Both the position numbers and the translations under genes were made by a program. Below the pieces are notes generated by a model. The model was not told the DNA's origin. It searched no databases and was given only the letters and a program-made list of their open reading frames with translations. Shown piece by piece: positions 30,805-34,086 of a stretch of DNA of 34,344 nt (positions are counted from its first letter, which is position 1; each line of letters opens with the position of its first letter). The stretch comes from a virus. The stretch lies in IMG/VR virus record IMGVR_UViG_3300031994_000321. The stretch is one strand, 5' to 3'.

Positions 30805-30849
30805 AACCGTACAATATATGCTTGATAACTTTTGACAAAAATTGAAATA

Positions 30850-33800
30850 ATGGAAGATCTGAAACCCATAAGGCGGCAGACGACAACGACTCTACTTGCC
30901 ACACTCACCGATAACGGAGTGAAGACTGACTGGCGCGATTTCAGCGTGATCCGTGCCTACATATATGCCCTGGATCAGCAGATGGTGTCCGGCCCCTGCT
31001 CGGTTGAGGTAGACAGCTCGGACGAGACCGTCCTTCGCTGCGTCTATGATGCCGGCAAGCCGCAATATCTCGGTCCGCAGAAACTCGTCATCTACTGCGA
31101 ATATCAAGGACAGAAGAACACCTACGACAAGCTGGCGTTCCGCTATGTCGCATCAACCGACGAGACCCTCAATGACGGCACGACGATCGCCGCCGACACC
31201 ACAGACGTATATATCACCGTCGAAGACGTTTCCACCTCCATTCTTTCCGGCGCTATAGCAGCAGCGCTGGATGCAGCTGAATTTGCCAACCGCACCGGCG
31301 AGGATGTCCAGGAGAGGGCGGACCAGGACCATACAAGAGCCGGGCAAGACCACACTCGCGCCGGAGAGGACCATACGCAAGCCGGGCAGGATCACACCCG
31401 AGCTGAGGAAGACCATACGCAGGCCGGGCAGGACCATACCCGAGCCGGGCAGGACCATACCCGAGCTGAGGAAGACCATACGCAGGCCGGTCAAGATCAC
31501 ACTCGAGCTGAGGAAGACCACACTCGCGCCGGAGAGGACCATACGCAAGCCGGGCAGGATCACACCCGAGCTGAGGACGATCATACGCAGGCCGCCAGCG
31601 ACCATACGCAGGCCGCAAACGACCACACCACCGCAGCGGCGGATCACGAAAAGGTTCAGCAATATGTAATAGATGCCGTTGATGTCAGTTTAGATAACGA
31701 AGAAGGAATCCCTTCGGGAACAGGATCGATATCCGGTGGCGTACTTTCCCTTAATTTTCATAATTTGAAGGGAGCAACAGGCGCAACAGGCGCAACAGGC
31801 GCAACAGGCCCACAAGGGCCGCAGGGAAACACGGGATCGAGCGTGGACTACCCCTTTGAAATCGTCAACAACCTTACCACGAATGACGCGACAAAGGCGT
31901 TGTCGGCGGCTATGGGTAAAAAAATCTACGACGATATTCTCACCGGCCCTAAAATAACGGCGCAAGAGAACGCAGGCACGGCTTCATCGTATTGGTATAA
32001 CAATAATGGCACGATAGGATATGGGGCATCGGGAATGGGATTGCACCGCGCCGATTATATCCCAGTCAATGTGGGCGACGCAGTAAGTCTTAATGTAGGC
32101 ATAGGCAGCGCAACGGTAGCGGTGGCATTTTTCTGCAATGATGCAGGCACAATAATCAGCACTATCGCCAAAACGGGCGGCAATACGCAATGGTCTGGCG
32201 GTGTTCCTGCGGGAGCGACACGGATATACATCAACTACCTCACGGGCTATACTTTTACAGTGCCCTCAACAATCGCCAAAATCAATGAGGCGTTGAGTGG
32301 ATTGGACGATGATTTGGAAACTCTCGACGACCAAGTCAATGGATATACCTCGACAACCACGGAGGCTGACGTTACCGCACCTTCTGGGGCTTGGGACAAT
32401 AGCGACGGCGTTGTCACGGCTATATCAAACGGCGTGCTTCACCGTGTCCCCGCAATAGATTTAAGCGGAGTAAAATCATTCAGCCTTACCACTACTCTTA
32501 GTTGGTCAATGGCTGCTGCCGGCTTCCTGTGCGATGATTTCGGCAACATCATAGAAACGATAAGCAGAACTGGGGAAACCACAACGGTTACGGATAAGGC
32601 AGTCCCCGCAGGAGCGACAAAGTTATACATCAACTACGCATCGGCATTCACTTATGCAGGATATTACCCCGGCATAGAAGAAAAAATCGAGGATGAGATT
32701 GAAAACCGCCTTAGTATAGATATAGAACTTCCCATTCTTGCTCCCTCGCCTCAACTCCCCGCAAATGGCGAGACCATATCCGACATCAATGCAGAAACGA
32801 TGACCTCGCAGAGCATACAATCGGCTATCGAGTCTATCATCGACAAACTGCCCACCCCCAACAAGAACTCATACCCCAACAATCCTCGTTACGGGACGGT
32901 ATATGAAACCATTGGCCGCGACGCATCCAATCAGTATGACATCAAGGCTTATGTGTTTACCAAAAGAAACCGTTTTTGTTGGCGAAGCGGCGCAGCCCTG
33001 TATGCGTGGGTAAATGGCAGCACTACATATTACACCGACCATCGTTCACCGATCGTTGGCGACGCGGTGTATAATAGTTCGTCCCGTGCATCTTCGGGAT
33101 ATGTTGTTACGTCGTATGATTCTTCCACTCCGGCTATATCGGTAAACGGGACGGCCTACACAAGAGACGATACCAAGAATGTGGCCGCAGATGAAATCTA
33201 TACCCAGTTAGAACTTGGAAGCACGACCGCGACAATATCATCATATTACAAGGACGGGAGTTGGGCGGGAACGGCCACCGTTGCTTCAGCCACGACACTC
33301 ACCCTGTCGGGGAAAACATATACCCGTTATCCGTCAAGAGACTTTCACACAGGCAACAAGGCGACCATTGCTTTGTGGGCCAACGAACACGGGCCGCAGA
33401 GCGATCCAAACGATGCAAGCGTTATTCTTTACCGCCTTGTTAAAGACTTGTGCCGTGGATGCAATGACAATCCCTTCCTTACATACCTTCGAGGCTATTG
33501 CAAGGTAGTGATTATTCCTGCTGCTAATCCGTGGGGAGTGAATATATACCAATCTGGTGGGTATGGCCGCAACAATGCCAACGGCGTGAACATTAACCGC
33601 AACTTCGACACCATCGGATGGGCCGCACAATCCGACACCAATAAAGGCAGTTATGCGGGCGACCAACCCGAAACGCAGTTTATTATGAATGCCGTCTTGG
33701 ATATGGAAGCAGACATCGCCATAGATGTCCATTGTCTCGGATATGTCACGCAGGCGAATGAGGGACGCTCACACTATGAGGGCGCAGTATCGGAATTGAA

Positions 33801-34086
33801 TGGTAAGGTAGCGAGCGTGATGACTGGCTATTGCGGTCTCTCATATACCTCTTATGGAGACGCAAGCCCCTCGACATCGGCGACGGGTGCTGATTGGTTG
33901 TACTCTCTCGGCATCGCGGGCGGTCTCATAGAGATGAATTCAGGGCCGTATGCTTCGTCGTTCAATGGCAAGCAACATTCCGACGTAATAATGTTTGCAA
34001 ATTACACCTTGCTGCTGAATACGTTGAGAATGTGGTATTATCAATATGACGACACCCTCGATTTATCGCGGATGAGCATCAAATAA
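30850..34086 (+). CDS. Tail fibre: N-terminal domain, DHTxAxx heptad array, collagen-like GXY, two tandem beta domains and a C-terminal M14 carboxypeptidase-like domain
   Basis: The track start at 30832 is TTG and the first ATG is 30850. M14 motifs are IIPAANPWG, GVNINRNF, YAGDQPETQF, IDVHCLG and GADWLY...LIEMN. The expected HxxE Zn motif reads EHGPQ. Confidence 0.8.
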   Translation: MEDLKPIRRQTTTTLLATLTDNGVKTDWRDFSVIRAYIYALDQQMVSGPCSVEVDSSDETVLRCVYDAGKPQYLGPQKLVIYCEYQGQKNTYDKLAFRYVASTDETLNDGTTIAADTTDVYITVEDVSTSILSGAIAAALDAAEFANRTGEDVQERADQDHTRAGQDHTRAGEDHTQAGQDHTRAEEDHTQAGQDHTRAGQDHTRAEEDHTQAGQDHTRAEEDHTRAGEDHTQAGQDHTRAEDDHTQAASDHTQAANDHTTAAADHEKVQQYVIDAVDVSLDNEEGIPSGTGSISGGVLSLNFHNLKGATGATGATGATGPQGPQGNTGSSVDYPFEIVNNLTTNDATKALSAAMGKKIYDDILTGPKITAQENAGTASSYWYNNNGTIGYGASGMGLHRADYIPVNVGDAVSLNVGIGSATVAVAFFCNDAGTIISTIAKTGGNTQWSGGVPAGATRIYINYLTGYTFTVPSTIAKINEALSGLDDDLETLDDQVNGYTSTTTEADVTAPSGAWDNSDGVVTAISNGVLHRVPAIDLSGVKSFSLTTTLSWSMAAAGFLCDDFGNIIETISRTGETTTVTDKAVPAGATKLYINYASAFTYAGYYPGIEEKIEDEIENRLSIDIELPILAPSPQLPANGETISDINAETMTSQSIQSAIESIIDKLPTPNKNSYPNNPRYGTVYETIGRDASNQYDIKAYVFTKRNRFCWRSGAALYAWVNGSTTYYTDHRSPIVGDAVYNSSSRASSGYVVTSYDSSTPAISVNGTAYTRDDTKNVAADEIYTQLELGSTTATISSYYKDGSWAGTATVASATTLTLSGKTYTRYPSRDFHTGNKATIALWANEHGPQSDPNDASVILYRLVKDLCRGCNDNPFLTYLRGYCKVVIIPAANPWGVNIYQSGGYGRNNANGVNINRNFDTIGWAAQSDTNKGSYAGDQPETQFIMNAVLDMEADIAIDVHCLGYVTQANEGRSHYEGAVSELNGKVASVMTGYCGLSYTSYGDASPSTSATGADWLYSLGIAGGLIEMNSGPYASSFNGKQHSDVIMFANYTLLLNTLRMWYYQYDDTLDLSRMSIK
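31327..31653 (+). repeat. 21-bp tandem repeat array (15 full units plus 1 partial) encoding DHT(R/Q)A(G/E)(Q/E) heptads
   Basis: Units start every 21 nt from 31327 to 31642. A 63-bp higher-order block (31348-31410) recurs at 31516-31578. Confidence 0.95.
31771..31842 (+). repeat. Collagen-like G-X-Y stretch (8 triplets) with 9-bp DNA repeats
   Basis: GAT GAT GAT GAT GPQ GPQ GNT GSS, with ggcgcaaca repeated at the DNA level. Confidence 0.9.

Follow-up and report, generated by a model that had tools for sequence, protein, structure and literature searches.

The open reading frame at positions 30850-34086 of the window (the whole 34,344-nucleotide stretch of viral DNA analysed here) encodes, as judged from its sequence and setting, a long tail fibre (receptor-binding protein) of a gut-bacterial virus, and the C-terminal head of that fibre is, on sequence and predicted structure, a genuine M14 carboxypeptidase-fold domain. 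The reading we prefer, to which we give a probability of roughly 0.6, is that of a fibre from a temperate siphovirus, probably trimeric, built from a BppU-like dock, a rod of His/Ala heptads, beta domains and a metal-binding M14 head. A head of this kind would serve to recognise a host-surface ligand that ends in a carboxylate, and might also trim it.

The fibre gene and its genomic setting

The frame runs on the plus strand from an ATG at 30850 to a stop that ends at 34086, giving a protein of 1078 aa. (An alternative TTG start lies upstream at 30832 and would give 1084 aa.) The genome is that of a circular temperate siphovirus of ~34.2 kb, with genes in the order terminase, portal, protease, capsid, adaptor, major tail protein, three tail proteins (561, 845 and 491 aa), fibre gene and lysis cassette. 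A second contig (L083) encodes an identical 1078-aa protein, again followed by a lysis cassette that includes Peptidase_M15_3. Relatives of the fibre gene occupy the same slot: one (P0007) lies directly upstream of a holin and Amidase_3, one of 1628 aa (L086) matches tail-fibre PHROGs and collagen and has an endolysin downstream, and a third (L003) falls after tail proteins and before an endolysin. The protein itself carries fibre-type repeats (PF22337, E 3.5e-10, and eight collagen triplets) and matches the tail fibre group PHROG 10972. The composite tail fibre proposed by the initial annotation is thus upheld by gene position, by fibre and collagen repeats and by the placement of relatives, and the sequence features it listed were all recovered at or near the positions it gave for them. 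Features of the gene are collected in Table 1.

Table 1. Features of the fibre gene, in window coordinates, with the evidence for each
Feature	Coordinates	Strand	Evidence
Tail fibre / receptor-binding protein gene	30850..34086	+	ORF confirmed; last tail gene
N-terminal beta-sandwich, probable baseplate-attachment domain (residues 1-128)	30850..31233	+	AF2, Foldseek
Continuous alpha-helix, predicted (residues 131-285)	31240..31704	+	AF2 with 93-sequence alignment
16 heptads DH(T)(R/Q)A(G/E)x (residues 160-271)	31327..31662	+	Perfect 21-nt register
Collagen-like (GXY)8 (residues 308-331)	31771..31842	+	Sequence read directly
Phage_fiber_rpt, PF22337 (residues 338-357)	31861..31920	+	Pfam E 3.5e-10, 39.8 bits vs cutoff 27
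Beta domain copy 1 (residues ~370-469)	31957..32256	+	Paralogous to copy 2
Beta domain copy 2 (residues ~503-602)	32356..32655	+	Paralogous to copy 1
N-terminal helix and two M14-fold strands (residues ~645-706)	32782..32967	+	AF2; alignment A1
About 130-aa beta-rich insertion in M14 fold (residues ~707-835)	32968..33354	+	AF2
M14 catalytic core (residues 836-1078)	33355..34083	+	Pfam, PDB searches, Foldseek
Metal-site loop H847-G-P-Q850-S-D852	33388..33405	+	Family conservation
R917, equivalent of carboxypeptidase A Arg145 (carboxylate anchor)	33598..33600	+	Arg in 152/152
H961, equivalent of carboxypeptidase A His196 (zinc ligand)	33730..33732	+	His in 151/151
E1028, candidate equivalent of carboxypeptidase A Glu270 (general base)	33931..33933	+	Glu in 147/147

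Dock, rod and beta domains

The N-terminal domain is predicted to be a beta-sandwich (AF2 strands within residues 12-124, pLDDT about 86-93 over residues 11-100) that would dock the fibre on the baseplate. Its Foldseek matches are weak (E about 1e-2, probability 0.93-1.0) and include the TP901-1 baseplate entry 4v96, the ORF48 N-domain 3uh8, the T5 tail tip (7qg9_J) and the 80alpha baseplate (6v8i_AN). TP901-1 BppU (ORF48) and related siphophage baseplate arms share with the fibre an N-terminal beta-sandwich followed by a long helix. BppU reportedly holds separate receptor-binding trimers, whereas the distal modules of the 1078-aa fibre lie in the same chain.

After this domain AF2 predicts a single helix of 155 residues, with ten-residue block means of pLDDT at 94-97 over residues 151-260. 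As the prediction is of a monomer, both oligomerisation and core register are our inference; judging by the neighbouring collagen triplets and the resemblance to BppU, the shaft would be a trimeric coiled coil of about 23 nm, whose core would be atypical in placing His at a and Ala at d. Sixteen D-H-x-x-A-x-x heptads would make this a rigid rod. The initial annotation had counted 15-16 perfect-period heptads over 31327-31653; all sixteen are in register, the last ending at 31662, with D and H in 16 of 16, T and A each in 15 of 16, and a helix-compatible sequence without any break in periodicity. Such heptads occur in 94 proteins, 5-31 in each, so rod length would differ between relatives, and they define a second conserved family beside that of the M14 head. 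One protein (P0026) has three such heptads within an Ala-rich helical segment.

It is very improbable that the heptads arose by recent expansion of a DNA repeat, or that they are a low-complexity spacer, disordered and lacking defined structure. TRF does report the 21-nt array with higher-order periods of 42, 63 and 105 nt, and the spread in copy number between homologues would suit such an origin, but the units average only about 72% nucleotide identity, with many synonymous differences: D is written GAC or GAT, H is CAT or CAC, and T and A each use all four ACN or GCN codons. This variation indicates that the protein pattern is kept, and not the DNA. Over 1424 heptads from the 94 proteins the consensus holds D at 99%, H at 97% and A at 93%. 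Against the prospect, raised at the outset, of disorder and drifting His positions, the segment has a high-confidence helix prediction and a His strongly conserved across the 94 homologues.

Beyond the rod, a short connector, the collagen triplets (GAT four times, GPQ twice, GNT and GSS) and the fibre repeat would provide the link to two beta domains. The eight-triplet collagen motif is present as first described; TRF finds a period of 9, four times, in this region, and the Pfam Collagen match is weak. Short collagen triplet runs are also known from prophage proteins of E. coli O157, where coiled coils and tail fibres are discussed (PMC3368898); the abstract of that account mentions no array of His/Ala heptads and no M14 head. 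The pairing of the two beta domains as paralogs holds up (35% identity over 101 aa, BLASTP E 3e-17). Copy 1 has no Pfam family match, and many M14-fibre family members contain the domain, often in two or more copies. Both copies probably bind sugars.

Base composition changes along the gene. GC is 0.56 in the N-terminal part, 0.63 in the heptads and 0.50 for 31663-34086, while GC3 falls from 0.68 through 0.62 to 0.52 over the same three regions, with neighbouring structural genes at 0.66-0.79. Among homologues, the same N-domain is joined to other shaft types (P0177, P0180 and P0027). The compositional shift and these modular homologues are consistent with a swapped distal module, as had been suggested from the more AT-rich DNA that follows the repeats.

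The M14 head and its metal site

The M14 motifs described in the C-terminal domain are all present (HGPQ at 847, NPWG at 893, GVNINRNF at 912, DQPETQF at 938, IDVHCLG at 958 and IEMN at 1027), and the HMM and structure comparisons agree with them. Residues 801-1078 scanned alone match Pfam PF00246 at 45.9 bits against a gathering cutoff of 21.6 (E 7.6e-12); the family was not reported in a scan of the full 1078 aa, and the gene's precomputed Pfam record lists no domain. A phmmer search of PDB sequences finds carboxypeptidase D at 1e-4, and the family profile finds CPN at 1.3e-8, CPD at 2.1e-8 and MpaA at 5e-8. In Foldseek, all 50 PDB matches listed are M14 carboxypeptidases, at probability 1.00 and with E down to 3.6e-9. 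The AF2 head model behind that search, made from an input of only 10 sequences, has a mean pLDDT of 75 and a pTM of 0.80, with pLDDT <50 over the conserved GRNNANGVNINRNF region. The MpaA murein tripeptide amidase model (NCBIfam NF007897) scores 15.1 bits, short of its equivalog cutoff of 157.

The head is larger than the roughly 250 aa first assigned to it. The M14-fold unit starts near residue 645 and comes to ~435 aa, with a helix at residues 653-666 and strands at 682-690 and 697-703 in the AF2 model, a region conserved in the alignment A1 homologues. Within it, strands at fragment positions 69-187 form a ~130-aa beta insertion between M14 strands, which family members carry too. Compared with M14 peptidases in general (PF00246; carboxypeptidases D, N, T and A, MpaA), the head shares the fold, His69, Asn144/Arg145, His196, a Glu270 equivalent and NPxG and SExET-like motifs; it differs in having no HxxE, an acid at His+5, an N-E-H-G motif around the His, the 130-aa beta insertion and a fusion to a phage fibre tip.

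The initial annotation saw in H-G-P-Q an altered zinc ligand, HxxQ in place of HxxE, and the alignment of 146 relatives leads elsewhere. H847, within an N-E-H-G motif, is His in all 146 and aligns to the His of NMHGNE in CPN, CPD and CPM (the His69 equivalent). The canonical HxxE glutamate (Glu72) has no match; its place at +3 is taken by Gln850, which is no conserved substitute, position 850 being hypervariable (Q32, N16, S15, G14, T11, D10, P10 and others). Position 852, by contrast, is acidic in 146 of 146 (D120/E26) and anchored to the start of the next helix. Since it is only ever D or E, and never the S, T or N of a simple helix N-cap, a required carboxylate is suggested. The distance from the His to the conserved acid ranges from 2 to 19 in the head family and is five in the 1078-aa protein. 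The metal motif of the head is probably H-x4-D, with Asp852 as the candidate zinc ligand. In an hhalign comparison with the HGDE of phi24R gp20, a 3-residue gap directly follows the His and G-D-E falls opposite S851-D852-P853; a plain HMM alignment puts the canonical Glu opposite position 850, which counts against Asp852 as a ligand.

The remaining active-site positions can be matched in the same way. N916-R917, in GVNINRNF, align to the NRNF of CPN, CPD and MpaA (position 916 is N124/D25). H961, at profile position 131, aligns to the MpaA His at chain position 157 that closes the ...VVSFH segment and that we take to be a zinc ligand. E1028 stands at the end of a strand predicted by AF2, at profile position 201; extrapolating the CPA and TAFI alignments brings this position within 1-2 residues of Glu270. 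We infer that E1028 is the Glu270 equivalent, a correspondence that is positional and not structural. The equivalent of carboxypeptidase A Arg127 is Tyr in 84 of 152 relatives and Arg in the 1078-aa protein. Because equivalents of His69, His196, Asn144/Arg145 and Glu270 appear to be kept, with the HxxE glutamate apparently replaced by the invariant acid of H-x4-D, the head would be expected still to bind zinc and a terminal carboxylate.

A His-x4-Glu site is known from phage enzymes. In PghP (H40/E45/H103) and PghL (H41/E46/H102) the zinc acid comes five residues after the first His, within a carboxypeptidase-A-like fold of phage origin (PMC6506827). These poly-gamma-glutamate hydrolases of Bacillus phages and prophages (MEROPS M86) share the His-x4-acid spacing with the head; they differ from it as small free enzymes (222 aa in the Bacillus phage Bobb homologue), not fibre domains, that are endo-acting on gamma-PGA and lack the Arg127/Asn144/Arg145 set, and the structural match to the head is weak (BFVD rank 12, E 2.7e-3). 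Helicobacter pylori Csd4, an M14 peptidoglycan carboxypeptidase, is a precedent for tolerance of a non-canonical zinc ligand in this family, as it reportedly stays active with an atypical Gln. That Gln reportedly replaces the first His (QxxE), whereas the head has its Gln in place of the Glu, and its relatives do not conserve it.

It had also been suggested that the head is an inactive pseudo-enzyme lectin; on such a reading the fold would serve as a binding scaffold with neither catalysis nor metal. The absence of HxxE is confirmed, the residue at +3 is free to vary, over half of the family has Tyr for the Arg127 equivalent, and the MpaA shortfall leaves no NCBIfam functional equivalog. Binding domains are the norm at a fibre tip, and receptor-binding tips are usually lectin-like and non-catalytic, which counts against a catalytic head. 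The invariant Asp/Glu at 852 nonetheless weakens the idea. All aligned members of about 150 divergent clusters keep both His residues, this acid and the Arg145/Asn144 and Glu270 equivalents, which would be surprising if the active site were not under selection, and H-x4-E zinc sites do support activity in enzymes of the carboxypeptidase fold (PMC6506827). We regard a pseudo-enzyme as unlikely, though a serious possibility. An intact metal site appears more likely than a dead enzyme, given that the acid at 852, His847, His961, Arg917 and Glu1028 are all invariant across relatives.

A bolder proposal takes rod and head together: the core of the heptad trimer would consist of stacked (Asp-His)3 layers, metal-stapled or pH-switchable, and the H-x4-D head would be an active receptor-modifying carboxypeptidase. 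There would then be 16 such layers here and up to 31 in relatives, each holding a metal ion or a titratable hydrogen-bond network, and the tip would represent a new class of enzymatic phage receptor-binding tip directed at a peptide or carboxylate ligand, not a polysaccharide. This combination is speculative and the odds are well against it.

Host, alternative roles and relatives of the head

The phage encodes an endolysin consisting of a ~130-aa Peptidase_M15_3 domain, in which no wall-binding domain was detected, a 149-aa protein resembling a unimolecular spanin (lipobox-like N-terminus, C-terminal transmembrane helix) and an integrase with Phage_int_SAM_5. The phage appears to infect a diderm gut anaerobe, possibly a member of the Bacteroidota. 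More distant relatives occur in Clostridia prophages.

These lysis genes bear on the suggestion that the head targets peptidoglycan stem peptides, which they make unlikely for this phage. In its fullest form, that suggestion makes the head a virion-associated peptidase that trims stem peptides for wall crossing, like MpaA, Csd4 and M14 enzymes of the endopeptidase-I type. MpaA is indeed among the best PDB profile matches and the only NCBIfam match, the Clostridia that carry the distant relatives are monoderms with exposed peptidoglycan, and a review of phi24R counts the zinc carboxypeptidase domain of that phage among lytic domains. In the diderm host to which the M15_3 endolysin and spanin-like lipoprotein point, however, the periplasm would be out of reach for the distal tip of a fibre. 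Enzymes that pierce the wall are normally part of the tape measure or tail tip and are not carried on a long rod; carboxypeptidase activity leaves cross-links intact; and the score lies far below the MpaA family threshold. We consider this role improbable.

An assembly chaperone removed after trimerisation, as S74 domains are, is scarcely credible. Peptidase S74 likewise places a peptidase-family domain at the C-terminus of a fibre, and position (143 of 157 relatives end with the M14 head domain) is all that speaks for the parallel. S74 domains work by Ser-Lys autoproteolysis and differ from M14 in fold and chemistry. No S74 or other chaperone family is matched in Pfam, PHROGs or NCBIfam. What the head conserves is a carboxypeptidase active site, ~435 aa is far larger than needed, and M14 is not known to act as a chaperone.

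The head has many relatives. It occurs at the C-terminus in at least 150 protein clusters (about 150 at roughly 25-40% identity), in phage contexts where checked, and this family of phage fibre heads is large and uncharacterised. Among 50,697 GenBank phage records, none with the fibre-M14 architecture was found. The initial annotation called a C-terminal M14 domain on a fibre unusual, which is right for cultured phages and not for the metagenomic clusters, at least 150 of which share it; by sequence, the architecture is rare only among cultured phages, not unique.

Nor is an M14 domain in a phage structural module new, having been reported for gp20 of Clostridium phage phi24R, a 'zinc carboxypeptidase' (JN800508) for which the texts consulted report no functional test. 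Together with PHROG 4722, which the head matches at E 3.6e-10, and the Bacillus phage Moonbeam carboxypeptidase, with a structural match in BFVD, gp20 belongs among the phage proteins closest in kind. It is only distantly related to the head (hhalign probability 88.8), comes from a podovirus of a monoderm host and has a canonical HGDE in a central M14 domain, unlike the C-terminal head of the 1078-aa fibre. C-terminal to that domain, gp20 shows a Laminin_G_3 (concanavalin A-like lectin) match at 22.6 bits, below the Pfam cutoff of 27.6, and its gene adjoins the pre-neck appendage gene.

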